From Victivallales bacterium (GTDB lineage Bacteria; Verrucomicrobiota; Lentisphaeria; Victivallales; GWF2-50-93): a DNA stretch of 38,800 bases. Of this stretch, positions 4,686 through 38,297 are shown in pieces. The stretch spans positions 1-38,800 of the forward strand of contig JBAYFV010000002.1 in the NCBI GenBank assembly GCA_041666985.1. Direction: 5' to 3'. The position numbers and the translations under genes are program-made. How positions within the stretch are numbered: the first letter of the stretch is position 1; each line of letters opens with the position of its first letter. The notes under the pieces were generated by a model that was not told the origin of the DNA, did not search any database, and was given only the letters and a program-made list of their open reading frames with translations.

Positions 4686-4754
4686 TTGTAAAATGATGGA
4701 TTGTTGGGACTGAATTTTAAGGGCGACAAAACGGTAGATGCCAGAATTGATTAA

Positions 4755-7158: not shown

Positions 7159-7162
7159 GCGT

Positions 7163-7345: not shown

Positions 7346-7420
7346 AAAAATAAGAAGGTGTATACTTGAAAAAGCAATTCATTCGGGTTAATCTAATAAT
7401 TCAAATTTAAAGGGAATTAT

Positions 7421-8619: not shown

Positions 8620-9622
8620 CTTCTATGAATCAGGAAAAGGCGAAACAATTATCATCACGTTTCCTGGTGGTGGTATTGGTGTCGTTGACGCTCATCCTTC
8701 TGAAAAAGTCGACAGATTGCATATAATTGAACTTGTTAAAGATAAAAAAATACATTTTCTCTGTCTCACCCATCCTCACTTAGACCATGCAAAAGATCTC
8801 CTTGAGGTTGTCAGAATAAGGCAGGACTATGAATTCTGGCATACCGTTCCATCGCTAAGAAAATTTTTCTTTGTCTGCACCGAAAGAGAGAAATATCCTT
8901 CCCCTGTTGATGCTCTTACTGAAAAACTATTTAGAGATAAAGTCAAGGTATTGACAGAACTCTTTTGGCGTGTGAAAGACTGCAAGATCGTATGCCGTTC
9001 TCTATTGAACAACCAAGTTGCAACGGTTATCGATCAGGTTGAAATATACTGTTTAAGTCCAAGCGAGAGAATTAAAAACAAAATAGAAGATGTTTATGAA
9101 GATATTGTCCAAGGTAAAAATCATGAAGAGCCTGAAGAGAACAGTTTGTCGGCTGTTTTAGCTTTGAAATACGGTGATACAATAATTATTCTTGGAGGAG
9201 ATGCCCTTAAAAAGAACTGGAATGACGCTTATGAAAAAGCTCGCAAAATAAATTTAGGAAAGGCCTTGATTATAAAAGTTCCGCACCATGGAGCATCTAA
9301 CTCTTTAAATGCTAAATCCAAAGAAAATCATCGCAGTTATCTCGAGTTCTGTAAAAATAACAGGGGAACTAAGGCTGTATTGTTTGCCGGAGACAGTAGA
9401 CATCCGGATGAAGCTGTTTTCGCTAAGCTTAAGGGCAAAGCGGTTCTTCATTGCACTGCAAATGGCTTGAAAACACCAGTATATGACCCATTGGATTTAA
9501 AAATACCTGGCGCAAAATGTTTGACTCCATCGAAAATATGTAATCCGGTTATCAGTTTCACTTGTGATGACAAAGGGAATATTGTTAATACGATGGGACA
9601 CGACTGCAGTGTGTGTAATTGA
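8606..9622 (+). CDS. MBL-fold metallo-hydrolase, ComEC-type, with Cys-rich C-terminus
   Basis: HxHxDH motif in LCLTHPHLDHAKD. ComEC-like NSLSAVLALKYGDTIIILGGDA and KVPHHGASNS. C-terminal cysteines (HC..., C...C, FTC, CSVCN). 33% G+C in 8701-8800 by hand count. Confidence 0.85.
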   Translation: MIKLDFYESGKGETIIITFPGGGIGVVDAHPSEKVDRLHIIELVKDKKIHFLCLTHPHLDHAKDLLEVVRIRQDYEFWHTVPSLRKFFFVCTEREKYPSPVDALTEKLFRDKVKVLTELFWRVKDCKIVCRSLLNNQVATVIDQVEIYCLSPSERIKNKIEDVYEDIVQGKNHEEPEENSLSAVLALKYGDTIIILGGDALKKNWNDAYEKARKINLGKALIIKVPHHGASNSLNAKSKENHRSYLEFCKNNRGTKAVLFAGDSRHPDEAVFAKLKGKAVLHCTANGLKTPVYDPLDLKIPGAKCLTPSKICNPVISFTCDDKGNIVNTMGHDCSVCN

Positions 9623-9629
9623 GTTTAAT

Positions 9630-22601: not shown

Positions 22602-22707
22602 TCTCTTAATTTTACTTTCAAAACAAACAAAAACAGCGATATTTTACAAAAATCGCAAAGATTCCCGGAAAAGTATTGTCTAATTGTCAAATACACAGGA
22701 AAAAGTT

Positions 22708-23253
22708 ATGCAGGAATCACAGTCTGTTGAAAAATTTCTGAAAGAGAAGACGACTGAGACCTTTTCTCCGGTGATAAATGAGCATATCGGCATGCTCAGG
22801 AATTTTGTTTACAGGATCGTTCTTAACGAACATGATGCCGATGACATTGTCCAGGAGGCGTTTATAACAGCATATAACAAGGCCGGATCGTTCAAGGGGA
22901 AATCAAAATTCTCGACTTGGTTATGCAGGATTGCCTGCAACAGGAGCCTGACAATGATGAGGGCTGGCAGGAAAACAATAGTCACAGACGGTGAGGACTG
23001 TCCGGAAATGAGGGATGCCAGCACCTCCAACACCCCGGACAAGCCGATGATCAGCAATGAAACACAGAGCCGTGTCATGACAGCCGTTTCAATGCTTCCG
23101 GAACACCTGAGAGCGGCGATAACGCTGATTGCTATTGATGAGAAGGAACCTGATGAAGCCGCATACATACTTGGCTGTAATAAGGCAACATTGTACTGGC
23201 GGATTCATAAGGCCAGGAAAATTTTAGGAAAAGAACTCGGAGACCTGACATGA
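22708..23253 (+). CDS. ECF-type RNA polymerase sigma factor
   Basis: Region 2 DADDIVQEAFITAYNKAGSFKGKSKFSTWLCRIACNRSL and region 4 HTH EAAYILGCNKATLYWRIHKARKIL. ATG 22708 with AGGA SD is preferred to TTG 22684. Confidence 0.85.
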   Translation: MQESQSVEKFLKEKTTETFSPVINEHIGMLRNFVYRIVLNEHDADDIVQEAFITAYNKAGSFKGKSKFSTWLCRIACNRSLTMMRAGRKTIVTDGEDCPEMRDASTSNTPDKPMISNETQSRVMTAVSMLPEHLRAAITLIAIDEKEPDEAAYILGCNKATLYWRIHKARKILGKELGDLT

Positions 23254-23283
23254 GGAGTCGGAACAACTTTTATGTAAAAACTC

Positions 23284-23369
23284 ACAAGCTGAAGCTTGGA
23301 CTCGTGCGCCTGTGGGGCGCACATCAACAAAGGAAGCTCATTCGTTGGAGTTCAAACTTTAGTTTGTCT
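23284..23369. repeat. Palindromic repeat element, GTTGGAGTTCAAACTTTAGTTTG family, copy 2
   Basis: 23344-23370 is the exact 27-nt reverse complement of 4820-4846. The inverted partner at 23284-23303 (ACAAGCTGAAGCTTGGACTC) matches 16/20, and three of the four differences are G-U compatible on the + strand. Inner perfect hairpin GTGCGCC-TGTGG-GGCGCAC (23304-23322). Confidence 0.8.
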
Positions 23370-23451
23370 TCTCTTGCTCTTTTCCCGTATTTTTTTGTAG
23401 TCAATGCCGCAAGGCATGTTCTTAACTCTAGTTTTGCTTCAGAGGTGAATT

Positions 23452-24186
23452 ATGAATAACAATAATTTGGACAATATCCTCAAAGCCTGGGACAAGAACC
23501 TCAAGCCCAGTTTCAAGGATCCCGCAGAACTCAAAAGCGGTGTAATATCAAGGATAAAGGCGGGAAACAGGTTCTTTCCGGATTCGAACGTATATTTTTT
23601 CGTCAAGAAAAAACATGTCTACAGCCTTGCCACCGCTGCTGCCGTGTTCCTGGTCATTGGCGGAGTATTCCTCTTGAATCTCAGAACAAACAAGCCAGGC
23701 CTGGCTACTCCGGAGCAACTTGCACTCCTTACAACTGACGACATGTCCGACATCAAGAGGATTTCAGATGAAGTGTGCCGTCTTTTCAATGACAAGATAC
23801 TGTGGATTATCAAGTCTGGAGACAAGATGGAGATAAAGCCCGCCGACATTTCCGACACTTCGGTTTCCAGTTCCAAAATCCTAGTCAGGCAGACTGTATT
23901 CCGGAAAACAGGCAATGGCTGGGAAAAAGTCTATATCGCCGACATCATAACAAACACGGGCCAGCAGGTGGTATTCAAGAATGACAAGAGCGATGGCTAT
24001 CTCTGGACACATCAGGCAGGCGACAACATAATCGCCCTTGAAGGCCAGATGAAACTCAGGGTCAACGGTGAGACCATCAACCTCAACTATTCCGGCGGCC
24101 AGCCGGAACAGACGCCAGTCATGCTCAAGGACATCAAGAACTCAAATTCCGAATATATAGTGTATCAGACCGTGAACCGAATATAA
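23452..24186 (+). CDS. Single-pass membrane protein, putative anti-sigma factor (by position and topology only)
   Basis: About 55-aa N-terminal cytoplasmic part, one TM (VYSLATAAAVFLVIGGVFLL), and about 165-aa extracytoplasmic domain. Lies downstream of the ECF sigma. No zf-HC2 motif seen. Confidence 0.5.
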   Translation: MNNNNLDNILKAWDKNLKPSFKDPAELKSGVISRIKAGNRFFPDSNVYFFVKKKHVYSLATAAAVFLVIGGVFLLNLRTNKPGLATPEQLALLTTDDMSDIKRISDEVCRLFNDKILWIIKSGDKMEIKPADISDTSVSSSKILVRQTVFRKTGNGWEKVYIADIITNTGQQVVFKNDKSDGYLWTHQAGDNIIALEGQMKLRVNGETINLNYSGGQPEQTPVMLKDIKNSNSEYIVYQTVNRI

Positions 24187-24190
24187 GATT

Positions 24191-24292
24191 AACCACGAAA
24201 CACCTGGAGCAGCTCGCGCCGCAACCAATTTTATAACCACAGAACACACAGAAAAAACATAAACCACGAAACACACTAATCACACGAAAAAC
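24191..24292 (+). promoter_or_regulatory. Four degenerate direct repeats of AACCACGAAACAC in the 350-nt leader of the exported-protein block
   Basis: AACCACGAAACAC at 24191-24203 and 24262-24274 (identical), AACCACAGAACAC at 24235-24247, and AATCACACGAAAAAC at 24279-24292. Inverted copy GTGTGATTCGTGGG at 24510-24523, just before ATG 24540. Confidence 0.55.
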
Positions 24293-24539
24293 TCATAATT
24301 GTCAACTTTTTGCTGCGCAAAAACTTAACAATTGATTTTTAAATAAACGTGCAAAAAAAACAAGAATATGACGGATAGTAGTACGAATGGCACGAAGGTA
24401 TTTTACATTGAAATAGAGGAGCGCTGGCGTCCCGCCGGCAATTTAAAATTGAATTATCGCAAATATTTCCATGTGTTGTGCGTCTAATTCATATAAGGAA
24501 ATATTATCTGTGTGATTCGTGGGCAGAAAGGATTTAATT

Positions 24540-25457
24540 ATGAATAAATTGTTTTTCATCTGCGGGTTTGCCTTATCCATTTCACTGTCTGCGGCGGAAA
24601 TCAAGTATGATTCTCCGCAGGCATTCTACGCCGGCAGGGAGGCCGTCGTCAATATTAAAACGGATGGCCTGAGCGGGAAGAACCTTTCCTGGAACCTTAA
24701 ATATTCCGGGCGGACAATCGCTGCTGCGGAACTCGCAGTTCCGGAAACCGGGGACGTAGAACTCAAATTCACGTTCCCGGAAATCAAGGACGGTGTCAGC
24801 GCAACTGCCGAGCTCGACTGCCAGTCTGGCGACAAGAAACTTGTAAAAAATATTTTTTTCTTTACGCAAAATCCTTTTGCGTTCAAGAAAAAAATACTTG
24901 AAAAGATGAAGATTGGTCTATGGGCTTCCGAGGGGGATGAAAAAGCTAAGAAACTTCTTGATTCACTTGGAGTCGCGACCGCTGATGTTGCGAATTTCGC
25001 AGATTTCAAAGGGGAGCTGCTGATAGTCACAGGAATCGCCTTCGGTAATTTTTCCGGTCTGGAGAAGGATTTGGTCAATATTTGTTCAGGAGGAGCAAAT
25101 ATATTAATAATCAATCCCAAGGCAGGAACCTTGCCCTTAAAAACTGAAAGTTTCAGGAATATGATTTTTTCGTGCAACGAAAAAATCATTGATTTCGACA
25201 GGAAGTTTGATTCGGAAAGATGGGGGGATTTCCCGCCGAACGAGAAATCACTTAACCTGATCCCCCTTGACAGCGGAGTCGCAATAGAAGTGGCCGGCAA
25301 CAGGAACTTTTTCACCTTCATGTCTGCTAAAATCGGCAAGGGCGAGTTGGTAATATGTACCTGGGATATCTTCGGTAGGATCGAAAAGTCGCCTACACCG
25401 GTTTACTTGCTTGAAATACTAATGTCAGAATCGGAGAAAGAACAGAAAAATAATTAG
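24540..25457 (+). CDS. Exported protein, Ig-like N-domain plus alpha/beta (flavodoxin/GATase1-like impression) C-domain
   Basis: SD AAAGGA 7 nt before ATG 24540. Signal peptide MNKLFFICGFALSISLSAAE. No catalytic motif recognised. Confidence 0.65.
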   Translation: MNKLFFICGFALSISLSAAEIKYDSPQAFYAGREAVVNIKTDGLSGKNLSWNLKYSGRTIAAAELAVPETGDVELKFTFPEIKDGVSATAELDCQSGDKKLVKNIFFFTQNPFAFKKKILEKMKIGLWASEGDEKAKKLLDSLGVATADVANFADFKGELLIVTGIAFGNFSGLEKDLVNICSGGANILIINPKAGTLPLKTESFRNMIFSCNEKIIDFDRKFDSERWGDFPPNEKSLNLIPLDSGVAIEVAGNRNFFTFMSAKIGKGELVICTWDIFGRIEKSPTPVYLLEILMSESEKEQKNN

Positions 25458-25550
25458 ACAGGATAACTGGATGTACAGGATTTATTGAAGAGAATGGATA
25501 GTATTTTTTATGCGAAGCAGAAAAAATAAAATAACTACGGAGGAATGAAG

Positions 25551-26489
25551 ATGAAGAAACTCATGACGATGTTGGCGCTGATTATTGGAATTTCAGCGGT
25601 CGCCCAGAATGAAGAAGCAAAAAAACAGGGGGCTGTTAATGCGGAAGTTTACACTGTTGCGGTACTGCCGTTCACGGAATCCGGAGCCGGAGTCGCCGGA
25701 ATGGGGGAACAGGTGTCTGACATCCTTTTTGCTAGGCTTTGTGTAAATCCGAACGTATGGATGGTCGAAAGAAAGGAGCTTGAGAAGATCTTTAAAGAAG
25801 CTGAACTCAACTATTCCGGCGCAGTGAATCCTAACCAGGCAATCCAGCTCGGACAACTCACCGGAGCGAAGATTCTTCTGACAGGCTCCGTATTCAAGGT
25901 GAAGGACAAGACTTTCCTTATTGCGAAAGTCATCAGCACGGAGACCAGTCGAGTCCTTGGAAAAAGCGTAGACGGTATGGGCGCGCTTGACGCCCTTGCA
26001 GACAAACTTGCCGGGCAGGTTAATGAAACTATTACAAAAGATGCCAGCAATCTTATGCCCCAGATAAGAGAACACAAGGACATAGTAGCCGACCTGAAAA
26101 AGTCCATAGGCGAAGCGAAGAAACCGAAGGTTTACGTCAAGATAGAGGAGCGTCATGTTGGTTCTGTTGCAGTTGATCCCTCTGCGGAGACAGAAATGCA
26201 GGTGATCTGCAAGGAACTAGGATTCGAAGTGACGACCAGCGAGAATGATGCCGAACTGGTGATAAAGGGCGAAGGCTTCAGTGAGTTCGCCGGCCGCAGG
26301 GGCAATCTGGTAAGCATCAAATCCCGCCTGGAAGTCAAGGTTCTTGACAAGGCCGGTAACGTGGTCGCCGTTGACAGGCAGACAACCGCCGAGGTTGACC
26401 TTGCCGAACAGATCGCCGGAAAGAAGTCCCTGCAGGAAGCGTCTGCGAAGATCGCAGAGCGCATACTCCCGAAGATTGTGAAGAAATAA
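25551..26489 (+). CDS. Exported protein with CsgG/LpoB/FlgO-like N-terminal module
   Basis: GGAGGA SD 6 nt before ATG 25551 (ATG 25545 also possible). Signal peptide MKKLMTMLALIIGISAVAQ. VAVLPFTESG...VSDILFARL...VWMVERKELEKIFKEAEL...QLGQLTGAKILLTGSV parallels the CsgG-family core pattern. Confidence 0.7.
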   Translation: MKKLMTMLALIIGISAVAQNEEAKKQGAVNAEVYTVAVLPFTESGAGVAGMGEQVSDILFARLCVNPNVWMVERKELEKIFKEAELNYSGAVNPNQAIQLGQLTGAKILLTGSVFKVKDKTFLIAKVISTETSRVLGKSVDGMGALDALADKLAGQVNETITKDASNLMPQIREHKDIVADLKKSIGEAKKPKVYVKIEERHVGSVAVDPSAETEMQVICKELGFEVTTSENDAELVIKGEGFSEFAGRRGNLVSIKSRLEVKVLDKAGNVVAVDRQTTAEVDLAEQIAGKKSLQEASAKIAERILPKIVKK

Positions 26490-26514
26490 TTTTTTGCAAG
26501 CAAAAAATTATAAC

Positions 26515-29500
26515 ATGAATTCCTTCAGGAAAACAATCCTTGTCATTCTTGTCTGTGTTATCTGTGGACATCTAGATGCGCAGACAAAGGTGGCTTTGAT
26601 TCCAACCGCGCCGGATCTTGCGCCGGTGGCAGATCAGGTGCTTGCCGCAATGTCGAATGAACCCGGTGTCGAGTTCCTCGAACGCTCCAGTATTGAAGCG
26701 GTGTTCAGTGAGCGCAAACTTACCGCCTCCGGTCTGACCGGCTCCAATCTTGCCGAACTGGGTAAGCTCATTCATGCCGAGCTTTTTGCTATCATTACCG
26801 CTAAACCCGGAGAAAAGGGCGCAATGGTATCTGGACTTATTGTCTACGATGCCCGCAACGGCTTTCGTCTGGTCAATGTGATGTTGCCGGAGCAGGATGC
26901 GGTCAAAGAGATCGCCAAACGCTTGCGGCAAGCGCAGGAGGTAATCCAACATCCCGAAAAGCAGATTTTACTGTCGGTGGCAACGGTGCGCAATGCCGGG
27001 ATACCGGAACGCTTCAAATATCAGGAAGCGTTTATCGCTGCCGATCTCGAACGGCGTTTGGGCGGTATTCCTAATGTCACTGTGCTGGAACGTGATTATC
27101 TTGACAGCGTAAATCAGGAATGTAAGACTACCGAACAGATGTTTGAACTTGCGCCGTCGTCACGGTTACTTCGGCTGGAATTTGCGCCTGGCAGTTCGCC
27201 GGAAATCGTTAATCTGCTCTTGCGCGTGACCGATGCCGCCAATAAAGAACTGTTCCGTTTCAATCTTGACAACTGCCTTGCCGATACCGAAGCCACTGAG
27301 ATGAAGACGATCGTTGCGGTGGCGGAATATCTGAAAGTAAGTCCGCCGAATATAACAGCGTCTGCGTCGGAAGAAGCGGCACGATTTTTTGCGGAATACC
27401 AGTTTTTCAGCCGTCTGGGCGATTACGCCGCCGCCCGCCACAAGCTCGATGCCGCAATCGCACTGGAGCCGATGAAATTGGAATACCGCATGGCGGTGTT
27501 ATCCTTAAATAAAGAAACTCCGGCCAACTCCTGTCGCGAAATGGTTTTGCGGCAGCAGCGGGCTTTTGATTTGAGCTTGGAGATTGAGCGCGATTTTCCG
27601 TTATTGCGTGAACCTTTATATAGCAATGGCAGTTATTATGACTGGAATCTCATGAATTCGATTGGACAGGCGACTCCGCAGGACTTGGCGGAAATGAAAA
27701 GTTTTGCCGCTGTTTTTCGTCCGAAGTACGATGCGGAAATCAGGCGGATTTATTATAAGTTCGATATCTCCGACGGTGTCAAAACTTATGAAGACTTAGA
27801 GATGCATGACCGTTATTGTAGCTACATGTCGCGATTTCATCTCTACTTCGATGCTGATCTATGGGTGGAAAACATTTACCGGGGCGCACTTCAGCGCTTG
27901 GAATTGAGCAAGGCCTTCTTTCTGGCACATCCGGAATTATGTAAAAAACCGGATATCTCCGATGGTGTTTCCGACTGGTTTTTCAATTTGGGAAGTGAGT
28001 ATAGGGAATTGCGCCATAAAACTAATATCGACAGCAAAAGTGCGGTGGAAAAAGTTTTACGAAACAGCAAAGAATATATTGAATTGGCGATGTTGCATCC
28101 GTTGTCTCAGACCAGTATTATGTCACTACGGATTGATTTGCTTCGCAAGACGGTGAAAAGCAATTACGATCCGGAAACATTTAAAGACAATATGTTGGAA
28201 TATTGTCGCCAGTTGTCGGCTATCAATCCGGAAGAGTGCAAAAAAATAGACGACCATGAAATCAATTTCTTCTGGGATGATAACAATCCGTTGCGGCGGA
28301 TTTCCTATGAAGTCCACAGGGATTTTGTTGCCAGCCAACGTTCTCAAGTTCCGGCTTCCGATACGGCGACAACACTTCGTCCGATGACAGAGCTTTTTGA
28401 TGATGTGAGATTGTTGAAAATTTCTGAAGCGAAATCGAGAACTCCGCAAGAGCAAGCAAAAATGCAAGTGAAACTGGCAGAAGCAAAGGCAAAGAAACTG
28501 CTGGAACTGGCGCCTCAGCTGCGGCAATATGTGAAATTGTCCTTTACCGATCCGGAAGTACGTGATTTCTTCTTGGAATCAGACTCTCTCCTTAATCAAT
28601 ATGTTTGGCGGGAAAAAAATCCGGTATTCCGACAGGCGATTGAAGCTTTAAATTGCGACGTTACGATCAAAAAAATAGCAACCGTTGATGATCAAAATAA
28701 ATTTGATTATGGAGATGTCAGAATATCCAATGCCGTCTGGCATGACGGTGAAATTTATATGTTGCTGTATCGTCATCTGAAGGATCCCGAAAGAGATTTG
28801 CGTGGCTGGAATTATCAGGATACTTGGAACATTGCCCAATTGGATATGGCTGCTGGGAAAATCAATGCTTTGTCCCTATGGTTCCAGCCTGCGGAACAAT
28901 CCCAAGATTGGGACACTTCCCGGATGACGCCTCTGGCAGTGGCCGGAAAAATGGCGGCAGTGGGCGGCAATAATGCCATTCATCTTTTTCCATTCGATGG
29001 GATACCGCAAGTTATCAAGGACTTACCGGACGGGATCGTGAAGGCAGTCGCAATTATGAACGACCGCATCTATGCTTTTATCGGAAAAGAAAACACCAAC
29101 GGACTGGATTATGCCAAGGAAATCACACTTTTCTCCTGCAAGTTCGATGGTAGCGATCGGCAAATTCATATTTCTTCGTCGCGGGATAACAAGCAGAATA
29201 ATATGGATCGGGAAAAACCGTTTTCGGTCTATTCGATGATTGCCGATAAAAATAAGAACCGACTGGTTTTCAATTGCGCTTCGCTCAACGGTAGCGGAAA
29301 CGTCAATGGATTATGGGAATTCAACCTGTCGACCAATACCGGAAAATGTCTGTTCGATATCCAATATAAATGGATTGATAAAATAATGACGGCGGTTGAT
29401 GATCACATCTTTTTTTCATTCTTTCTTTGGGATTCCTGTATTTATGATCTTGCCGCTGACAAGGGGGAGGTTTTCTTTTCAATAGCCAACGAAACTGCTA

Positions 29501-29784
29501 AAAATTATTTAAAGGTAAAAGTCCGTCCTGCTCAAGGTATTTTTTATCATGGCCCTTTCTTTGCGCGTCCGAATCAAATCTGGTTCGGTGGTGATGGAGG
29601 TGTCAAACTTTTAACTTTGCCGGGTATTAGCCACTCTCCGATGATCATATTGCCGTTCGGCCGCTTCTCTCCCGGCTGGAACCGCCTGCTTTTTCCCCAT
29701 CCCGACGGAAAGTCGGCAATTGCCATTGATGAGAGGAATATCTACAAAATCACCCCGAAAGAAAGAGGAGTGGAAACTCAATGA
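26515..29784 (+). CDS. Giant exported protein B: 2x CsgG/LpoB-like modules, helical (TPR-like) region and beta-propeller-like C-terminus
   Basis: Signal peptide MNSFRKTILVILVCVICGHLDAQ. Module 1 is KVALIP...VEFLERSSIEAVFSERKL. Module 2 is LLSVATVRN...VTVLERDYLDSVNQE. C-terminal repeats of strand-rich blades (AVWHDGEIYMLLY, AIMNDRIYAFIG, AVDDHIFFSFF, NQIWFGGDGG). Codon usage differs from the neighbours. Confidence 0.75.
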   Translation: MNSFRKTILVILVCVICGHLDAQTKVALIPTAPDLAPVADQVLAAMSNEPGVEFLERSSIEAVFSERKLTASGLTGSNLAELGKLIHAELFAIITAKPGEKGAMVSGLIVYDARNGFRLVNVMLPEQDAVKEIAKRLRQAQEVIQHPEKQILLSVATVRNAGIPERFKYQEAFIAADLERRLGGIPNVTVLERDYLDSVNQECKTTEQMFELAPSSRLLRLEFAPGSSPEIVNLLLRVTDAANKELFRFNLDNCLADTEATEMKTIVAVAEYLKVSPPNITASASEEAARFFAEYQFFSRLGDYAAARHKLDAAIALEPMKLEYRMAVLSLNKETPANSCREMVLRQQRAFDLSLEIERDFPLLREPLYSNGSYYDWNLMNSIGQATPQDLAEMKSFAAVFRPKYDAEIRRIYYKFDISDGVKTYEDLEMHDRYCSYMSRFHLYFDADLWVENIYRGALQRLELSKAFFLAHPELCKKPDISDGVSDWFFNLGSEYRELRHKTNIDSKSAVEKVLRNSKEYIELAMLHPLSQTSIMSLRIDLLRKTVKSNYDPETFKDNMLEYCRQLSAINPEECKKIDDHEINFFWDDNNPLRRISYEVHRDFVASQRSQVPASDTATTLRPMTELFDDVRLLKISEAKSRTPQEQAKMQVKLAEAKAKKLLELAPQLRQYVKLSFTDPEVRDFFLESDSLLNQYVWREKNPVFRQAIEALNCDVTIKKIATVDDQNKFDYGDVRISNAVWHDGEIYMLLYRHLKDPERDLRGWNYQDTWNIAQLDMAAGKINALSLWFQPAEQSQDWDTSRMTPLAVAGKMAAVGGNNAIHLFPFDGIPQVIKDLPDGIVKAVAIMNDRIYAFIGKENTNGLDYAKEITLFSCKFDGSDRQIHISSSRDNKQNNMDREKPFSVYSMIADKNKNRLVFNCASLNGSGNVNGLWEFNLSTNTGKCLFDIQYKWIDKIMTAVDDHIFFSFFLWDSCIYDLAADKGEVFFSIANETAKNYLKVKVRPAQGIFYHGPFFARPNQIWFGGDGGVKLLTLPGISHSPMIILPFGRFSPGWNRLLFPHPDGKSAIAIDERNIYKITPKERGVETQ

Positions 29785-32700
29785 TGAAGAAAATACTTGG
29801 CATGATTGTTTTGCTATTCTGCGGCATGGTGGTTAACGCCGCTAAGGTGGCAGTGATCGCAGACAAAGGTCTGGAGAAGTATGCGGATCTGCTGACGGTT
29901 GAGTTGTCGAAGCAGAGTGACTTGAATGTCATTGAGAGGACGGAGATTGACAGGGTCTTGAAGGAGCAGGCGATTTCAAGTGCGAACCTGACTGCCAATT
30001 ATCTCAAGCTCGGTAAGCTTTTAAAAGCCGACGGGCTTGTGATTATAAGGAAGTTTGAATTTCAGAAGAAGGAATTCCTCGTGTCAAGGCTTGTTGCGGT
30101 AAACCAGGGAGCCGTATTGTCAGCATTCTCCAATCCTTTTCCCCCAGAAAAAAACGACAACTGGTCGGCGGATATTTCTGCGAAGTTCGCACCGTACCTG
30201 AACAAGCTGAATGTATCCCCGGATAAGGCGGTTCCAATCTCTATCCTGAATATCAGGGCGCCGATAGACACGCCCGAAATGCGTCTGCTTGAAAAGGAAT
30301 TTACCCTTGCGCTTGCATTCAGGCTTGTCCAGGAAAAGGACTTGTTCGTCCTCGAACGGTGGAAGATGGAGAAACTCGCCTGGGAAAAGGATATTGACAC
30401 CGAATCGAGTCCATTCTGGACCGGAAGCTATCTTCTCGATGGCAACATTGAACTCGTTGACAAAGAGAATGTCAAGATAAAGGTAAGATTGAGGATGCCT
30501 ACAGGTCTGGAAAAGACCATAGAGGCGGCAGGCACCAAGGACAGGTTATCCGAAATTACTGAAAAAGTAACAGGTGATCTTTTGAAGAAGATAGGCAAAG
30601 CCCAGGATAGGATAATGTGGGACAGCACCAAGGAGGCCGAGCAGTATCTTAAAGAGGCTGAATGGGCGTTCAATGCAGGACTTTTTGAGGATGCCTTTTC
30701 CTCCGTCCAGACTTCAATTGCCTTGGGGAATAAATCGGAGGTAGCCCTTTTCTTGGAAGTCAAAGCCGCCACGAATTGCGCGTATCCCGCCAGAGAGCCT
30801 GAAGTATGGATTAAGATTAACTTTGGATATGAGTCGAACTTGATTGATATTACCAAAGACAGTAGGCGAATCGACGATGCTTTGCTTTCAATGGAGCTGC
30901 TCAGGAAGAGCATCCTGGATAAGATACCCGAATCGGGGCAAAGTTTTTCTAGTGAGAAGAAATGGCGGGAGCTTGCAGAAAGAACTCTGTTAAATGCATC
31001 TATTGTCCTGAGGGCTTATTATGATCAGGGTTGCATATCTAAAGACAGTGGCAAAACATCCGCCTTAAGGAAAATGATCAGGGATTCATATCCCGTAATC
31101 GCTGGGAGATACTTTAATTACGGACTGACTGCCAATGTTTTTGAAATAAAGGCTTCATACATTCCTTTCTGGTGTGATAGCCCGGAAGAAACCTTGGATG
31201 CCTACAGGGATCTTCTCTGTAATAATCATATCAAAGATGCTAGACAATACTATTATGAAATAAAAAGGACTCTGATTGTCAAGGATGTTTTGAAGGAAAT
31301 GACAATGTTTCGGGCATCTGCCTGGCAAGGCTTACGCATGGAGCGTGCGGATGACCCTTCGCGGACTCCCTTTCTTATTGATTGGCAAGGCCGGATTGAC
31401 AAGAAGATGCTGATGGGGATGTGGGATAATTTTACGGACAATCTTTGCGCATCCGGAGACTTGAAGGCGAGATACGCGGGATTATACATCAAGGCCTGGA
31501 CGCATAATCTTTCCGCAGCGAAAGGGGGAAACAAATACATGCGCGAGCTTATGGATTTGTGCTGGAAAGAGAGGGCAAACATCGTTGAGGGCAAGTCTGA
31601 TATTCCTGTTTTTTCCGCAGACGGCTTCAATATCGCAGCGGTAGACAAGGACGCCGTTTATCAATACCTGTCCAAATATGTTAAATTCCTTCTCGAGGAA
31701 AGTATCTCAGGAAAAATCGCAAAACATTCCGGCAATCTTCCTGATGTTTTCTCGGTTTGGTTGAAGGATTCGACTCCGGCTGATGCAGATGCTGTCTTTT
31801 CGCTGCTTATGAAATACAGGGACACGATCAAGGAGTCTCTTAAAGGCAAAGGGATATATGATTTTACGATTTCCTATAATAATCAAATCCTGAAAAAGTA
31901 TCCGCAACTATGTGATTCAGGGACGAAAAACCTTTTGATTTCAAGAATATGGAATCCATATGAATCCAAAGTGACAAATGACCTAAGCGGATTCCAAATA
32001 CTTCATATTTCCGGATTAGCATCCGGGGTCTCTCTTATCTGTTCATATGACTCAAAAGATGCTGTGACTTTCAAGATTGCATTCATCAGTTCAAACGGTC
32101 TGGAAAACAGTTTTATGGATATTCCATACGAAAACATCTCGAGTATGGTGGCCGCAGATGTTTCAGAGAATTTTGCCGTAATAGCAAGGGGCAGAGGTGC
32201 GCTTTTATCTTATGATATAAAATCCGGCAAATGGAGCGAATATGATATGTTTGAAAAGAAATATACGTCTGTGAAAATTATCGGTGAAACCGCATTCATT
32301 TCCTTTAATCCTTCTGAATCTGGAAATTTGGACAGTGGAATCATCAAGCTTAATTTAAAGAGCGGTAAAAGTGAAATCCTGGCCTCTTCAGGCCGCAATC
32401 CAGCTCAATCGCCTTTGGATAATCTTCCACCTTATAAGGTGGAAGAGATTATGGAGATTTCTCCCGGGATAGTCCTGGTTGCAGTCACATTGAAAGATAA
32501 ACCATATTTTCCGCAATGTCTGACCTATGATGTGGCGAATGACAGATGGGGTGAATTGTTCTTGGCCGAGGAAAAACTTCTCAGAGGCTTGTTCAAGCAT
32601 AAAATATCCTTGGAATTCCTTTCAGAGGGAGGGGATTTCTATGGAAGATATACTTTCGGTGGCTTTATGGTGCTTCTATCTGACATGAATTATCAAAAGA

Positions 32701-33146
32701 CAATCTATCTTCACTATAACAACGCCAGAGAACTGCCAGTGATTTTCAATGGGTTGAGAGAATGGAAGAGTTTCGGGAAATATCTTTTCCCTGCGAATAA
32801 GTATTTATGTTATGATGGAAGCAGTGCCTTCTATTATACGGGAAATCAGGAAAATATCGCGTGTAAATATCTGATTGCTTTCCCCGACAAGTCGACTGAT
32901 GGGATTGCAATCAAGTTGGAATTCAACATGGACGACCAGCTGTTCAGCCTTATGAGTGCAAAAAACAGGGGAATTGACAGGAAGGAGGCTTTTTTTAATA
33001 ATGCAATTTCTGACAACTGTTTTTGGCTAAAAGGTTCTGGATTCTTCATAAAAAGCGGCGACTCAAGGGTGCTATGGTTCATTCCCCAGAGGGATATTGA
33101 TGATTATATAAGCAAGGGGATTGGAGATAGGAAAATAAAACAGTAA
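29781..33146 (+). CDS. Giant exported protein C, paralogue of B with the same architecture
   Basis: ATGA overlap with the B stop. Signal peptide MMKKILGMIVLLFCGMVVNA. Module 1 is KVAVIAD...LNVIERTEIDRVLKEQAI. Module 2 is ISILNIRAP...LFVLERWKMEKLAWEKD. Long helical middle and strand-rich C-terminus. Confidence 0.75.
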   Translation: MMKKILGMIVLLFCGMVVNAAKVAVIADKGLEKYADLLTVELSKQSDLNVIERTEIDRVLKEQAISSANLTANYLKLGKLLKADGLVIIRKFEFQKKEFLVSRLVAVNQGAVLSAFSNPFPPEKNDNWSADISAKFAPYLNKLNVSPDKAVPISILNIRAPIDTPEMRLLEKEFTLALAFRLVQEKDLFVLERWKMEKLAWEKDIDTESSPFWTGSYLLDGNIELVDKENVKIKVRLRMPTGLEKTIEAAGTKDRLSEITEKVTGDLLKKIGKAQDRIMWDSTKEAEQYLKEAEWAFNAGLFEDAFSSVQTSIALGNKSEVALFLEVKAATNCAYPAREPEVWIKINFGYESNLIDITKDSRRIDDALLSMELLRKSILDKIPESGQSFSSEKKWRELAERTLLNASIVLRAYYDQGCISKDSGKTSALRKMIRDSYPVIAGRYFNYGLTANVFEIKASYIPFWCDSPEETLDAYRDLLCNNHIKDARQYYYEIKRTLIVKDVLKEMTMFRASAWQGLRMERADDPSRTPFLIDWQGRIDKKMLMGMWDNFTDNLCASGDLKARYAGLYIKAWTHNLSAAKGGNKYMRELMDLCWKERANIVEGKSDIPVFSADGFNIAAVDKDAVYQYLSKYVKFLLEESISGKIAKHSGNLPDVFSVWLKDSTPADADAVFSLLMKYRDTIKESLKGKGIYDFTISYNNQILKKYPQLCDSGTKNLLISRIWNPYESKVTNDLSGFQILHISGLASGVSLICSYDSKDAVTFKIAFISSNGLENSFMDIPYENISSMVAADVSENFAVIARGRGALLSYDIKSGKWSEYDMFEKKYTSVKIIGETAFISFNPSESGNLDSGIIKLNLKSGKSEILASSGRNPAQSPLDNLPPYKVEEIMEISPGIVLVAVTLKDKPYFPQCLTYDVANDRWGELFLAEEKLLRGLFKHKISLEFLSEGGDFYGRYTFGGFMVLLSDMNYQKTIYLHYNNARELPVIFNGLREWKSFGKYLFPANKYLCYDGSSAFYYTGNQENIACKYLIAFPDKSTDGIAIKLEFNMDDQLFSLMSAKNRGIDRKEAFFNNAISDNCFWLKGSGFFIKSGDSRVLWFIPQRDIDDYISKGIGDRKIKQ

Positions 33147-33237
33147 TTTTCATCCTATGCATATACAATAAAAGAACTCCGTAATGCGTTTTAATCGGAG
33201 GTGGGTTTTTAAAATCTTTAGAAAAGGGGAATGGATT

Positions 33238-33789
33238 ATGAGAAAGCTGATTGCGATGACTTTTGTGGGGCTTCTGTCGGGCGTCTTTGTCTTAAGCGCG
33301 GAAGATGCGTCAAAACCGTCCGCACCCGGGAATGGTCCGGTTCCTGCGAAAGCGATAAATCCTGAACTTGGAATGCAGATGGCGTCCGAGTACCTCAGGC
33401 AGAGCGATCCTAAGAAATTTGAGGAGATGCAGAAGCTCAGACAGGAAAATCCCGAGGAGTTCAAGAAACAGATGTCCGCCCTTTCCGGGAAGATGAAAGA
33501 GAAAAATCAGAAGGAGAGGGAAGAATTTAAAGCCCTCACCGACAAATATCGCGAAACTAAGAGCGATGCTGACAAGGCCGCCGTGAAGGCCAAGCTGGAA
33601 GAGTTTATGAAAAAGAGAATTGAGATGCAGAAGCGGCGCATTGATGAAATGGAGAAAAATATCGTCCAGGCCAAATCGAACATTGCCGACGAGGAAAAGA
33701 ACATGCAGGCGAAGATTGACGAGAAGCTCAATCAGATACTTTCAGGCAAAGACGGCCAAAAAGACAAGAAGACCGAACCTGCCAAATAG
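33238..33789 (+). CDS. Exported K/E-rich coiled-coil protein (Spy/CpxP-like chaperone is a guess)
   Basis: SD AAGGGGA before ATG 33238. Signal peptide MRKLIAMTFVGLLSGVFVLSA. The remainder is a highly charged helical sequence. Confidence 0.6.
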   Translation: MRKLIAMTFVGLLSGVFVLSAEDASKPSAPGNGPVPAKAINPELGMQMASEYLRQSDPKKFEEMQKLRQENPEEFKKQMSALSGKMKEKNQKEREEFKALTDKYRETKSDADKAAVKAKLEEFMKKRIEMQKRRIDEMEKNIVQAKSNIADEEKNMQAKIDEKLNQILSGKDGQKDKKTEPAK

Positions 33790-34034
33790 GTCGAGATAAT
33801 GCAAAATATTATGTGTTTTCTGTTTTTTTCATTCCAGGCGTCAAATAAAACATAGAAAGCGGAAGAACAGTCCTTGCGGACTTGACTGCCGGCAAATTTT
33901 CAAGGGAACCTCAATTGTTTTTATCAGCTTGGACGGTTTGTGTATTCGCCTCTCCGTGTTAAGTTACGGGATGTTAAATCTAATAAAAACACGAATTCAT
34001 TCAAGGCTGGAAATCCGATGTTGAAGGAACCCGT

Positions 34035-37000
34035 ATGAGACTTGTTCAGAAACCGGCGCCAGGTAATCATTCCCTTTATTTCAGGGGGGATACTGCCTGC
34101 TTTGAACTTGAAGTCGAGGGTTTCGCCAAAGGGAAGGCTTTTCTTCGTACAAATCTTGGCAACGCCTTCATCAGGCGAAGAGAGATTATTGAGGCCGTTG
34201 AAACAAAGCGCCAGAGGAGCGGTCAGGACTGGCATGACGTGCCCATGGAGAAAACCGGAGAGAAAACCTATTCTGTCATACTCGCCCTGCTGGAGGTCGG
34301 ACATTTCGAGGCGAAATGCCTTTTTCTCACCGATGAATCCTCCGAACCTGTCTGGGTTGAGGGAGACAATCTGCACATAAACGTGGAGCCTTCGGACTTC
34401 TGCTGCGCAAACAGCATATACTGCGCATTTGTCAGGCAGTTCGGCGGCAATAAGGGCAAAAAGGAAACCGTTGGCGACGAGCTCAACTCTCTCATTTACA
34501 GGCTGGACAACAAAGGGTATTCCGTGATTCCCCCGTCGGGCACATTCAGAAGCCTGATAAGGGAGCTGGACATAATAATTGACAGGCTCAAGTGCAGGAT
34601 AATCCATCTTCTCCCTGTGAATCCGACCCCCACCGTCTTTGCCAGGATGGGGCGTTTTGGAAGTCCGTACGCAGCTCTGGATTTTACGTCGGTTGATCCG
34701 TCGCTTGCCGAGTTCGACAGGAAATCGACTCCGCTGGATCAGTTTCTCGAACTTGTTGACGCGGTTCACCGGAGGAATGCGAAAGTTTTTATCGACATGG
34801 CGATAAACCACACCGGCTGGGCGTCCAGAATTCACGAGGATCATCCGGAATGGCTTGTAAGGGAACCCGACGGTGCAATCCACTCTCCGGGCGCCTGGGG
34901 GGTTGTGTGGGGAGATCTCACCGAACTCAACCATAACAGGCTCGATCTCTGGAAATACATAGCGGAAGTTTTCACAACGTGGTGCAGCAGGGGGGTGGAC
35001 GGCTTCCGTTGTGACGCCGGATACATGATTCCGGGCGAAGCGTGGGAGTTCATAATCGCCCGTGTAAGAAATGAATACCCGGATACGATTTTCCTTCTTG
35101 AAGGGCTGGGCGGGGATCCTGCGGTCACCAGACAGCTGCTTGACAAAGCCAACATGAACTGCGCGTATTCCGAGCTTTTTCAGAATTTCACCAGGCAGCA
35201 GATTGAAGGATATGTGCCATATGCGCAGGAGATAAGTTTCTCGGAAGGACTGATGGTCCATTATGCGGAGACGCATGACAACAACCGGCTCGCGGCCATT
35301 TCACCTCTTTACGCGCAGATGAGGACGGCCCTCTGCGCTCTCACCTCAAGCAACGGCGCCTTCGGTTTCACAAACGGCGTTGAATGGTTTGCAACGGAGA
35401 AGATTGATGTTCACGAGGCCAACGCCCTCAACTGGGGAAACCCGGAAAATCAGATTCCCCATATCCGCCGGCTCAATTCAATTCTTGTCTGCCATCCCTC
35501 GTTCTTCAATAATTCTTCAATAAGATTCATTGATCCCGGACATCCCCGCGCCATTGCATTCGTAAGGTCGGACGCGAAGGGGGAAAAAAATCTGCTGGTG
35601 TTTATAAACCTTGACTGCGGGGAGGTGTCGAAAATCGTCTGGAAGACCGAAGATGTTCCTTTCGAATGCGGAACCCTGCTGGATCTCATAAGCGAGGAGC
35701 ATTTTGTTCCGACGGAATCGCCGGGGAGGAAAAAATCTCTTCTTCTTGGGGCGGGACAGGTCCTCTGCCTTACGGCAAATCCGAAGGAGTTGTATTACAT
35801 CTCCGAGGTTGAGGGGAGGAAGCATGAGAAGCCCGACAAGATTGTGCGGCAGAGCGCTCAGGCGATCGCATTTGAGGTGCTTTGCCGGAGAAACCGTTCC
35901 AACGTGGTCGTTGATTTGAAGCCGAAGGAGCTTGCCCTCAAGCTTCTTGACGATCCGTATGAATTTGTTTCATCGTTTTACGATTCGCTGGAGGAGACTC
36001 CGGTTGTCGTATGGGAATGGCCCACCGACATGAGGAGAATGGTCATGATACCCCCGGGCCACCATATACTCGTGAAATCGCCTTTCAGGTTCCGCGCGAG
36101 AATCGCGGACGACAGGAAAATCATAATCCAGAGGGACAGCCTCAGGAAAAGTTCCGGAAAATATTTTGCCTTGTTCATGCCTCTCCCGGTCAGTAAGACG
36201 CATGTCAGGTTGAAGATGAAAATCTCGGTGTATGCCGAAGACAAGTCAAGAAGGGAGGAGGCGGAGATTCTTCTGCTTTCACCCGATGACACAAGGGTGC
36301 ATTCAACCTATGCCAACGCCGACATGCGTTCGTCCCCGCTTGTTTTCCTGGATACGAACGGAAGGGGCGGCATGTTGCATTCATGTGTTCAATGGGGTGA
36401 ATTGAAAAGCAGGTATGACGCCATTCTGGCCGCAAATATCAGCGTTGATTATCCTGAAGACCGCCATATCATGTGGAGGCGTTGCAGGATGTGGGTGGAC
36501 TTCCATGGACGCAGGGAGGTTTTTTCGCTTGACACAACGGAGAATTTCACAGTCAACACGGACGGCAGCGGAACCTGGAATTTCCATCTTCCGGTCGGCA
36601 ACGGTCTGTTTGTGGATGTCTGCGTCAACATGATGATGATTGATAATGAAAACGCTGTCAGAATGGAGGTCTTCAGGCGTCTGGCCTTAAACGAAAACGA
36701 ATATCTTTCTGATGATTTTCCGGTCAGGATCATAATGCGTCCCGACATTGACGACAGGAATTTCCATATGGAAACCAAGGCGATGCACGGAGCCGAGACG
36801 CATTTCCCGAAATCCGTTGAAGCCAACCATAAGTCAGTGACGTTCTCGCCTTCCGGGGACAGAAGCCTTGTCATAAGCACTTTCAAGGGGAAGTTCGTGT
36901 CCGCGCCTGAATGGCAGTATTCGGTTTACCACGAGAGGGAGTCGTCCCGCGGGCTTGAAGCTTTCAGCGATTTGTTCAGCCCCGGATATTTTGAAATCAC

Positions 37001-38297
37001 CCTCGGCGGAGGAGAGGGTGAACAGGTTGTCGGGCAGGTTCTGACTGCTTTGGAAAACAGGAAAATACAGTTGAACAATGTTAACCACGAATCTCTGCCC
37101 GCAGATTCCTCTTTTGAGAAAGTCCTGCTTTCCGCGATGGACAAGTTCATTGTCAGGAGAGACGGGTTGAAGACGGTTATCGCCGGATATCCGTGGTTCC
37201 TTGACTGGGGCAGGGATACGCTCATTTGCGCAAGAGGTTTAATTGCCGCCGGGAAAATAGACGAGGTTTCACAGATTCTCCTTTTGTTTTCGAAGTTCGA
37301 GGACAGGGGAACGCTCCCCAACACTATTCAAGGCGCAGTTGCCGGCAACAGGGACACCAGCGATGCTCCGCTCTGGTTGTTCGTCGCATGCAGCGATTTC
37401 ATCAGGAAAACCGGGAGAAAGGGTTTTCTCGGAACTGCGGTTGAGGGCAGGGGAACTCTTGTTTCAATTCTGGAAAGCATTGCGCATAATTACATTAAAG
37501 GCACGCCTAACGGCATAATTGCCGACAAGGATTCCGGCCTGATTTTCAGCCCTTCTCACTTCACCTGGATGGATACGAATTATCCGGCGGGAACCCCGCG
37601 CGAAGGATATCCCGTGGAAATACAGGCTCTCTGGTATTTCGCGCTTTCCTTTCTGGCTGAAAATACAGATGACAGGGAATGGGGAGTTCTTGCGGACAAG
37701 GTGAGAACTTCATTTATAAGGCTCTTTTATCTCGAAGATGAGAAATATCTCGCCGACTGTCTTCACGCGGGAGCCGGACAGCCTGCGTCAAAAGCCGGAA
37801 AGGGTGACGCGCTGAGGCCGAATCAGCTCTTCGCCATTACGCTTGGACTTGTCAGGGATCCGGTAATATGCAGGGATATTCTCCTGGCGTCATCATCTCT
37901 TCTCATGCCCGGCGCCGTACGGAGTCTTGCCGACAGACCCGTTTCTTTCAGGCTTCCTGTCTACGGGAGGAATGCGCAAATCATCAACGATCCTCCGAAT
38001 CCGTACTGGGGCAGATATGAAGGCGATGAGGATTACAGGAGGAAGCCCGCATATCACAACGGGACGGCCTGGACCTGGCCGTTCCCCTCATACTCGGAAG
38101 CCTATTATCTCACCTACGGGAATTCAGGGAGGAAAACCGCGAAGTCAATTCTCGCGTCTTCAAAGATGCTTCTGGAAAAAGCCTGCATCCAGAATATTCC
38201 CGAAATTCTCGACGGCGACTATCCGCACACCCAGAGGGGCTGCGACGCGCAGGCGTGGGGAGTCACCGAACTCTACAGGGTCTGGAGCCTGCTGTGA
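34035..38297 (+). CDS. Fused GH13 alpha-glucan-active domain plus amylo-alpha-1,6-glucosidase (GDE) domain, 1420 aa
   Basis: GH13 regions I-IV: VFIDMAINHTGW, GVDGFRCDAGYMIP, IFLLEGLGG, VHYAETHDNNR. The HPEWL/GVDGFR context recalls GlgE-like enzymes. Central GDE_N-like segment (NGRGGMLHS...RYDAILA). C-terminal GDE_C motifs GYPWFLDWGRDTLI, RPNQLFAITL and AYHNGTAWTWPF. Confidence 0.85.
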   Translation: MRLVQKPAPGNHSLYFRGDTACFELEVEGFAKGKAFLRTNLGNAFIRRREIIEAVETKRQRSGQDWHDVPMEKTGEKTYSVILALLEVGHFEAKCLFLTDESSEPVWVEGDNLHINVEPSDFCCANSIYCAFVRQFGGNKGKKETVGDELNSLIYRLDNKGYSVIPPSGTFRSLIRELDIIIDRLKCRIIHLLPVNPTPTVFARMGRFGSPYAALDFTSVDPSLAEFDRKSTPLDQFLELVDAVHRRNAKVFIDMAINHTGWASRIHEDHPEWLVREPDGAIHSPGAWGVVWGDLTELNHNRLDLWKYIAEVFTTWCSRGVDGFRCDAGYMIPGEAWEFIIARVRNEYPDTIFLLEGLGGDPAVTRQLLDKANMNCAYSELFQNFTRQQIEGYVPYAQEISFSEGLMVHYAETHDNNRLAAISPLYAQMRTALCALTSSNGAFGFTNGVEWFATEKIDVHEANALNWGNPENQIPHIRRLNSILVCHPSFFNNSSIRFIDPGHPRAIAFVRSDAKGEKNLLVFINLDCGEVSKIVWKTEDVPFECGTLLDLISEEHFVPTESPGRKKSLLLGAGQVLCLTANPKELYYISEVEGRKHEKPDKIVRQSAQAIAFEVLCRRNRSNVVVDLKPKELALKLLDDPYEFVSSFYDSLEETPVVVWEWPTDMRRMVMIPPGHHILVKSPFRFRARIADDRKIIIQRDSLRKSSGKYFALFMPLPVSKTHVRLKMKISVYAEDKSRREEAEILLLSPDDTRVHSTYANADMRSSPLVFLDTNGRGGMLHSCVQWGELKSRYDAILAANISVDYPEDRHIMWRRCRMWVDFHGRREVFSLDTTENFTVNTDGSGTWNFHLPVGNGLFVDVCVNMMMIDNENAVRMEVFRRLALNENEYLSDDFPVRIIMRPDIDDRNFHMETKAMHGAETHFPKSVEANHKSVTFSPSGDRSLVISTFKGKFVSAPEWQYSVYHERESSRGLEAFSDLFSPGYFEITLGGGEGEQVVGQVLTALENRKIQLNNVNHESLPADSSFEKVLLSAMDKFIVRRDGLKTVIAGYPWFLDWGRDTLICARGLIAAGKIDEVSQILLLFSKFEDRGTLPNTIQGAVAGNRDTSDAPLWLFVACSDFIRKTGRKGFLGTAVEGRGTLVSILESIAHNYIKGTPNGIIADKDSGLIFSPSHFTWMDTNYPAGTPREGYPVEIQALWYFALSFLAENTDDREWGVLADKVRTSFIRLFYLEDEKYLADCLHAGAGQPASKAGKGDALRPNQLFAITLGLVRDPVICRDILLASSSLLMPGAVRSLADRPVSFRLPVYGRNAQIINDPPNPYWGRYEGDEDYRRKPAYHNGTAWTWPFPSYSEAYYLTYGNSGRKTAKSILASSKMLLEKACIQNIPEILDGDYPHTQRGCDAQAWGVTELYRVWSLL

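Follow-up and report, generated by a model that had tools for sequence, protein, structure and literature searches.

A gene module for predicted exported proteins linked to an extracytoplasmic function sigma factor across the Planctomycetes-Verrucomicrobia-Chlamydiae superphylum

Rings built from the CsgG-N-type fold occur in CsgG, in PelC and in the H-ring proteins of the flagellum. The same small α/β domain is found in LpoB, the TolB N terminus, FlgO/FlgT and PelC, often in rings under the outer membrane. The CsgG barrel is built by two hairpins located after residue 131, and TolB combines TolB_N with a six-bladed PD40 propeller and belongs to the tol-pal operon. Promoters of extracytoplasmic function (ECF) sigma factors usually have a two-block layout, with a spacing of about 16 nt between the −35 and −10 elements, and are typically autoregulated. 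Bacteria of the Planctomycetes-Verrucomicrobia-Chlamydiae (PVC) superphylum have unusual envelopes, and a function has yet to be assigned to most of the envelope proteins conserved in them. The subject of this analysis is a 38.8-kb stretch of a Victivallales bacterium genome (contig JBAYFV010000002.1, positions 1 to 38,800; hereafter, the window), in which an open reading frame (ORF) listing places seven genes, G1 to G7, on the forward strand at 22708–33789 (Table 1). The original prediction, made from the sequence alone, described an ECF sigma factor gene and a gene for a single-pass membrane protein at the head of a block of exported proteins. The ORFs, the sigma-70 domains of G1 and the one internal hydrophobic segment of G2 agree with that description. 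On balance, we favor the view that G1–G7 is an ECF sigma/anti-sigma-controlled operon for an assembly of several proteins, conserved throughout the PVC superphylum, that is located in the periplasm and possibly associated with the outer membrane.

Gene order was compared in the 80 best loci from species-representative genomes, whose ORFs were called and searched with family profiles as well as the window proteins; related loci are cited below by L numbers. Of the 69 loci with at least 1.1 kb of upstream sequence, 68 have a G3 homologue immediately 5′ of the G4 homologue, and G3–G4 is an obligate gene pair. Where at least 3.3 kb of upstream sequence was available (52 loci), G3 was present in all 52, an ECF sigma gene in 36 and G2 in 35. 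The linkage of the exported-protein homologues to ECF sigma genes elsewhere, on which the original prediction depended, was thus found in 36 of 52 loci. G2 accompanies the sigma gene in 35 of the 36 sigma-carrying loci and never occurs without it. One to three ORFs of 823–2388 amino acids (aa) carrying the N-terminal module of G5 and G6, referred to here as giants, were detected in 32 of the 36 loci of at least 15 kb. The order sigma-G2-G3-G4-giant on the same strand is kept in four phyla. Many loci have abutting or overlapping neighbors, as in L018, where 4-nt overlaps join the longest ORFs of G1, G2 and G3. In loci that lack the sigma pair, a giant gene is usually upstream or divergent instead. 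Rhodopirellula sp. SM50 (L117) has the arrangement G3-G4-giant, and L041 and L112 are on the Bythopirellula chromosome OZ245849.1. The conserved unit is G3–G4 plus one to three giants, with the sigma/anti-sigma pair attached in about two-thirds of species. By these counts, the genes are grouped far beyond chance. It is extremely improbable that they are mere neighbors without a functional link and that the sigma/anti-sigma pair regulates something else. About one-third of species have no adjacent sigma pair and G7 is not conserved, as that explanation would have it, but the retention of order and strand in four phyla and the duplication of a sigma-type promoter motif before G3 argue against it.

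G1 consists only of sigma-2 and sigma-4 domains, identified by the Pfam models Sigma70_r2 (PF04542, 2.8e-16) and Sigma70_r4_2 (PF08281, 8e-08). The protein scored 74.1 bits against the ECF superfamily model TIGR02937 (cut-off 42.9); every NCBIfam equivalog score was below its cut-off, and no named ECF model was reached. G1 orthologues are 78–88% identical in L012, L014 and L016 and 30–45% identical across the PVC phyla. The ATG start codon is kept in the orthologues, and an alternative TTG at 22684 would overlap the promoter motif described below. The numbered ECF groups are those of the ECF Hub classification (PMC7826278), and these proteins are not mentioned in the running text of the papers on ECF classification.

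The original prediction suggested a search for a shared promoter motif 5′ of positions 22708 and 24540, and a motif conserved across phyla was found at both. It was derived by aligning the region upstream of G1 with those of the three close relatives L012, L014 and L016, which revealed the invariant blocks CGCAAAGATT and TCTAATT spaced by 14 nt. The resulting 32-nt pattern, CGCAAAnATT-N14-GTCTAATT, has exactly two mismatch-free matches in the window, P1 before G1 (CGCAAAGATT-N14-GTCTAATT) and P2 before G3 (CGCAAATATT-N14-GTCTAATT). The expected number was 0.02, and none of 100 shuffles gave two matches. The form common to the sites before G1 and G3–G7 is CAAAGATT-N14-GTCTAAT, which reads as the two blocks CAAAGA-N16-GTCTAA. 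With a threshold of at least 13 of 15 positions and a limit of 220 nt 5′ of the sigma orthologue, the motif was detected in 23 of 40 loci; the control rate was 8 in 2000 random 240-nt segments from the same loci (0.4%). The 23 loci span Lentisphaerota, Verrucomicrobiota, Kiritimatiellota and Planctomycetota, including Pirellulaceae and Rhodopirellula, and L014 and L013 likewise carry the motif 5′ of G3. A single promoter would serve G1–G4 in most species because those genes abut or overlap there; in the lineage of the window, the 353-nt G2–G3 spacer holds the second copy. These data reveal a promoter-like element, conserved and linked to the sigma gene, at the positions needed for autoregulation and for control of the structural genes. 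We propose that P1 is an autoregulatory ECF promoter and that P2 is an ECF-dependent promoter of the structural genes, with G1 as the probable factor that uses the motif.

The block is less compact than first described. Short gaps or overlaps had been reported throughout; the common strand and a 4-nt overlap of the G5 and G6 ORFs agree with this, but the G1–G2 and G2–G3 gaps are 199 nt and 353 nt. The G1–G2 spacer contains a GC-rich hairpin (23304–23322, GTGCGCC-tgtgg-GGCGCAC) with no T tract, which may be an attenuator or processing site; most other species have no such spacer, as their sigma gene overlaps G2. The unusually long G2–G3 spacer contains, 5′ of P2, two direct copies of the 19-nt repeat AACCACGAAACAC at 24185–24203 and 24256–24274. 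The copies are 89% identical and 71 nt apart, and a further regulator could bind there.

Hydropathy and the family alignment divide G2 into approximately 55 cytoplasmic residues, one transmembrane segment (55–79) and a conserved periplasmic domain of approximately 165 residues. Conserved positions of the family are W13, F112, W118, W185 and an EYxxxQT sequence, with an LD..L..W motif at the N terminus. From its position and topology, we infer that G2 is a putative anti-sigma factor.

The five remaining proteins were predicted to be exported with signal peptides, and all five have candidate leaders. The sole hydrophobic segment in G3, G5, G6 and G7 is N-terminal by hydropathy, and G4 has a predicted type-I leader. 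The G3 description as an immunoglobulin (Ig)-like plus α/β protein is borne out by an AlphaFold2 model (predicted local distance difference test, pLDDT, of 76) that contains a β-sandwich (20–108), an α/β domain (114–212) and a β region (236–273). Foldseek searches with the model returned only Ig and macroglobulin (MG) domains and the accessory region of a glycoside hydrolase family 2 (GH2) protein, with a TMq of 0.40. G3 has no Pfam match, 3 of 56 family members have weak single-domain matches, and no enzyme match was found. A single-sequence search of 1.84 billion proteins gave a G3 family of 336 clusters at 50% identity.

G4 is part of a large and well-conserved family. A database search retrieved 643 family members with 50–87% identity from Lentisphaerae, Kiritimatiellae, Verrucomicrobia and Planctomycetes, and two scans of species-representative genomes detected 268 and 457 relatives. 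A small number of records assigned to Pacearchaeota, Paceibacterota or Clostridia bins are probably mis-binned PVC contigs. The N-terminal domain of G4 is of the CsgG-N/LpoB/FlgO type and matches Pfam CsgG (PF03783) at 4.2e-12, with 46.2 bits against a gathering score of 20.8; a weak FlgT_M match was also found. The CsgG half of the earlier 'CsgG/LpoB-like' label stands above the gathering score, but the LpoB half is weak and below cut-offs. The C-terminal domain has no Pfam match, yet no other part of the system is as strongly conserved; it contains a GEGFSEFxxRRGN motif and invariant H204, D211, E217, E243, GEGF, R251 and R261. The leader is short and ends in AVA-Q with no cysteine; the family leaders that were read end in type-I AxA-Q-type sites, and a lipobox-like motif occurs in 6 of 120 family members. 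No significant PDB match was returned by sequence searches with G3, G4, the G5 family or the family profiles of G3 and G4.

These properties bear on the possibility that G4 is a CsgG/HfaB-type outer-membrane channel with the giants or G7 as its substrates, in a curli- or holdfast-anchor-like export system under ECF control. The CsgG score is above the gathering threshold, the giants carry weak CsgG matches too, and family members have the public names 'CsgG/HfaB family protein' and 'curli assembly protein CsgG'. However, the match is limited to profile positions 12–99 of 210, and the alignment of the G4 family to Escherichia coli CsgG covers only chain residues 64–131 (E 0.23), which precede the barrel hairpins. 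The G4 region beyond the match is hydrophilic, with no hydrophobic segment, and the leaders of the family are type I. When the seven genes were scanned against Pfam and NCBIfam, no curli-family model was found besides CsgG (on G4, G5 and G6); the related loci were not scanned for csgA/B/E/F or hfaA/D. A channel function for G4 is accordingly judged very unlikely. Other public names in the family are 'TolB-like protein' and 'DNA-directed RNA polymerase subunit H', and automatic labels such as 'curli assembly protein CsgG' mislead for this family.

AlphaFold2 modeling of G5 (17-sequence alignment, pLDDT 79) predicted a leader, tandem CsgG-N-like α/β domains (24–145 and 151–275), a helical solenoid (284–712) and a β-propeller of approximately seven blades (716–1081). 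Foldseek searches of the PDB with the model returned only generic propellers (WD40, BamB, Ycf48 and the BT4663 sensor). G5 has a narrow family of 19 homologues in a database search, the named ones all from Victivallales metagenome-assembled genomes (MAGs), and a single-sequence scan of species representatives gave no G5 match. G5 and G6 had been called paralogues of about 1100 aa. BLASTP detects similarity over only about 90 N-terminal residues, but comparison of the two families by hhalign extends over 856 columns (probability 99.1%, E 8e-19, 16% identity), and because of this profile-profile match G5 and G6 are considered distant full-length paralogues of one architecture. G6 matches Pfam CsgG at residues 32–88 (6.3e-05), G5 has a weak N-terminal CsgG match too, and profile comparison of G4 with G5 defines a common core of 54 columns (probability 89%, E 2e-6). 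G6 orthologues lie directly 3′ of G4 in L011, L012, L013 and L015. Giants of other phyla keep the N-terminal CsgG/FlgO-type domain and regions resembling tetratricopeptide repeats (TPR). Their C termini differ: FGE-sulfatase (C-type-lectin-like) heads are present in the giants of L028 (3600–7841), L037 (10957–14934) and L039 (1065–5324), and others have TPR, weak Kelch or weak discoidin matches. The C-terminal head is regarded as exchangeable because the FGE-sulfatase domain replaces the G5 β-propeller in relatives.

Variable heads are also what would be expected if the giants were periplasmic or surface receptors for glycans or macromolecules that, with G2 and G1, formed a ligand-sensing device like the ECF/anti-sigma circuits of polysaccharide utilization in Bacteroidetes, with G3–G4 as an adaptor. 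The heads are typical ligand-binding folds, including a propeller that resembles, among others, the periplasmic domain of the BT4663 heparin sensor, the lectin-like heads and the weak discoidin match; the giants vary, with one to three per locus; and the host phyla are polysaccharide specialists. Against this, no conserved carbohydrate-active enzyme, TonB-dependent transporter or sulfatase was noticed beside the module, in loci that received no dedicated scan for them. The neighbors in the window are housekeeping genes common only to the closest relatives, and the regulon seems to consist of the structural genes themselves, which would then not be the input to a catabolic regulon. We consider a receptor role of this kind unlikely.

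The last gene, G7, had been described as encoding a K/E-rich coiled-coil periplasmic protein. About half of the mature residues are K, E, R, D or Q, the protein is predicted to be helical and its N-terminal segment is hydrophobic, in agreement with that description, but the gene is lineage-specific. Apart from the identical contig L001, the related loci contained one homologue, which is 51% identical and occupies the corresponding position in L013, and no significant family match was obtained in Pfam or NCBIfam. The likely start is M19 at 33238. G7 is a lineage-specific accessory whose membership in the module is uncertain.

A second, paralogous module was found in Victivallales (L006, L008 and contig Ce4ccCBh), in the order sigma′, a 209/215-aa membrane protein, at least two giants, a 264–272-aa G3-like protein and a 311–323-aa CsgG-like protein; sigma-less versions exist too. 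It has the same parts list as the window block, with identities to its counterparts of 36–54% for G5, 35–36% for G1 and 36–38% for G4, and its 264–272-aa protein is weakly related to G3 (E 6e-5, small database). In contrast to the PVC-wide G3–G4 type present in the window, its giants precede the G3′/G4′ pair, the reverse order. In L012, which is the window's nearest relative, the genes run G1-G2-G3-G4-G6, with G5 absent. Because L012 is without G5 and the G5 orthologues belong to the paralogous module, the window block is best described as a hybrid in which a giant of the paralogous module stands between G4 and G6, and the window lineage appears to have acquired G5 from that module.

In L002 and L003 (approximately 6.5–15 kb), a paralogous trio of giant, G3-like and CsgG-like genes lies directly 3′ of ftsW-murG-PSP1 with no sigma pair, and this trio may be linked to cell-wall or division genes in that lineage. 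Such a location is one of the points in favor of a role as a regulator of cell-wall or envelope biogenesis similar to LpoB, the peptidoglycan synthase activator, or TolB, with the giants and G4 binding synthases or peptidoglycan. Weak LpoB matches on G4 (Pfam E 0.018; TIGR02722 E 0.0025) and on a relative, and the joining of N-terminal α/β domains to a C-terminal β-propeller in the G5 model, as in TolB, point the same way. The LpoB matches are all under cut-offs, however (PF13036, 15.4 versus 22.3 bits; TIGR02722, 17.9 versus 110.6 bits), and the rarity of lipobox-like motifs indicates that members of the G4 family are not lipoproteins. The 50 best Foldseek matches of the G5 model do not include TolB, there is no TolB_N or PD40 Pfam match, no tol-pal genes are nearby, and the division-gene neighborhood occurs in one lineage only. 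A function of the LpoB or TolB type is thus improbable.

Other arrangements were noted in the related loci. The close relative L011, an uncultured Victivallis sp., has an M48 peptidase gene followed directly by G3-G4-G6-G6′ (6872–10942). It lacks both the sigma/anti-sigma pair and an exact copy of the promoter motif, which points to a recent loss or gain of the regulatory pair. The divergent M48 peptidase was considered as a module part or anti-sigma protease and rejected, as only the closest relatives (L011, L012 and L024) have it beside the module. A cluster in L004 encoding proteins of 194, 245, 274, 344, 976 and 193 aa was considered as a second copy of the module and rejected; the proteins have no similarity to G1–G7 and read like pseudopilins. 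Four ORFs near a lone G5 homologue at 16138–19327 of L004, present also in L005, have prepilin-type-like leaders in the first, second and fourth (FSLVEMLVV, YTVVELLVV and YTLVEVMMA) and a more distant leader in the third (FNMIEVILA). This run resembles a cluster of pseudopilin genes with no relation to the module.

The preferred reading, an ECF-controlled operon for an envelope assembly, suggests the following sequence of events, which we infer from the parts and their linkage. G2 would keep G1 inactive through its short cytoplasmic N terminus, and an envelope signal read by the G2 periplasmic domain, which may bind G3, G4 or a giant, would free G1. The freed sigma factor would then transcribe its own operon and the structural genes G3–G7 from the two CAAAGA-N16-GTCTAA promoters. 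G4 would oligomerize through its CsgG-N-type domain and with G3 make up the core of the assembly, the giants would dock onto or co-assemble with G4 via their homologous N-terminal domains, and their variable heads would project to bind an envelope or extracellular polymer. None of the parts is predicted to be catalytic. The original prediction recognized no catalytic motif, and no enzyme domain was found in profile or structure searches.

Several points weigh against this reading. ECF control is not universal, since about one-third of species have G3–G4 and giants with no adjacent sigma/anti-sigma pair. No Pfam match of G2 reached its curated cut-off among 28 members and no anti-sigma domain model was found, and the cytoplasmic part of G2 is short. 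The G3 model was built from a shallow alignment of 14 sequences. A G4 ring with docked giants is an analogy drawn from a fold common over only about 55–90 residues. The invariant His, Asp, Glu and Arg of the G4 C-terminal domain could form an unrecognized active or ligand site. As to the original proposal of envelope sensing or assembly under ECF control, the sigma linkage and the motif favor the regulatory half, but sensing or assembly would follow only from the conditional steps above. More tentatively still, G3, G4 and the giants may possibly make up an undescribed PVC-specific periplasmic or outer-membrane-associated machine, in which a CsgG-N-type ring or scaffold with exchangeable binding heads, for example as part of an apparatus for macromolecule capture or uptake, would have its assembly monitored by the dedicated ECF circuit.

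Table 1. Genes and promoter-like motifs of the G1–G7 block in the window.
Feature	Position	Strand	Basis or remark
G1, ECF sigma-70 factor (group 4), 181 aa	22708–23253	+	Sigma70_r2 and Sigma70_r4_2
G2, putative anti-sigma factor, 244 aa, single-pass membrane protein	23452–24186	+	Hydropathy, family alignment, sigma co-occurrence
G3, predicted exported protein, 305 aa, Ig-like + α/β + C-terminal β region	24540–25457	+	AlphaFold2 model
G4, predicted exported protein, 314 aa, or 312 aa with MKKL start	25545–26489	+	Pfam CsgG
G5, predicted exported giant, 1089 aa	26515–29784	+	AlphaFold2 model
G6, predicted exported giant, 1121 aa	29781–33146	+	Profile homology to G5, Pfam CsgG
G7, small K/E-rich predicted exported protein	33184 or 33238 to 33789	+	Composition, N-terminal hydrophobic segment
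P1, promoter-like motif	22654–22685	+	Ends 23 nt before G1 ATG
P2, promoter-like motif	24458–24489	+	Ends 51 nt before G3 ATG

The genes that flank the module are housekeeping genes and are common only to the loci of the nearest relatives; the closest public relatives of the window proteins are from Lentisphaerota/Victivallales MAGs. The upstream flank encodes an M48 peptidase, tmk, holB, a glycoside hydrolase family 5 (GH5) enzyme, queA, glycogen synthase, a rhomboid protein and an HrpB helicase. The starch/glycogen synthase gene is at 13914–15497. Directly downstream of the module (34035–38297) is the gene for a 1420-aa fusion of an α-amylase-like domain with GDE_N and GDE_C (glycogen debranching), which is also found 3′ of the module in L013. 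A 450-aa antisense ORF (33924–35276, minus strand), of which 34035–35276 overlaps the debranching-enzyme gene, is most likely a non-coding shadow ORF. The GC content falls to 0.37–0.38 at 7001–9000, compared with approximately 0.47 elsewhere in the window. The ORFs inside this stretch (7421–8164 and 8161–8619) have no Pfam match, nor do those at 3990–4685, 4938–5666 and 5663–6865, and the low-GC stretch together with the ORFs of 3990–6865 may be an acquired island. No Rfam match was found anywhere in the window, a sigma-70 promoter scan gave sites at chance level, and terminator-like sites were more numerous than in shuffles yet marked no gene end. A defense system was considered and rejected, as the PADLOC matches were only marginal (E 0.006 or weaker, on G1 and G7).

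The module is present in several hundred species representatives of at least four phyla and includes three parts with no Pfam family, namely G3, the G2 periplasmic domain and the G4 C-terminal domain. The analysis provides a defined parts list, a conserved motif for mapping the regulon and, in G1/G2, a candidate genetic switch. The literature searched contained no publication describing this gene set, and structure searches with the G3 and G5 models and profile searches assigned it to no known machinery, in accord with the original prediction.

Comparison with the closest described systems separates the regulatory genes from the structural ones. As in the sigmaE-RseA-RseB circuits, G1 is an ECF sigma factor, a downstream single-pass protein, G2, is tied to it, and a motif before the sigma gene is consistent with autoregulation. 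Unlike in those circuits, G2 has no recognizable anti-sigma domain and only about 55 cytoplasmic residues, and what seems to be the regulon comprises exported proteins private to the module rather than chaperones or proteases. G4 and the giants share with CsgG/HfaB about 55–90 residues of the CsgG periplasmic α/β domain, including the motif ...ER..L..L..E..L..SG..., but G4 lacks a lipid-anchor signal and similarity over the barrel-forming half, and it bears an extra conserved C-terminal domain with no Pfam relatives. The same domain gives weak LpoB, FlgT_M and FlgO profile matches, all under curated thresholds, which recall the LpoB/TolB-N/FlgO/FlgT/PelC group; G5 differs from that group in its two tandem copies and 430-residue helical solenoid, and no Tol-Pal, flagellar or Pel genes surround the module. 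As modeled, G5 would resemble TolB in domain order only, α/β domains followed by a β-propeller. The regulatory layer is of a known kind, and the effector module, which matches no described system, is conserved superphylum-wide.

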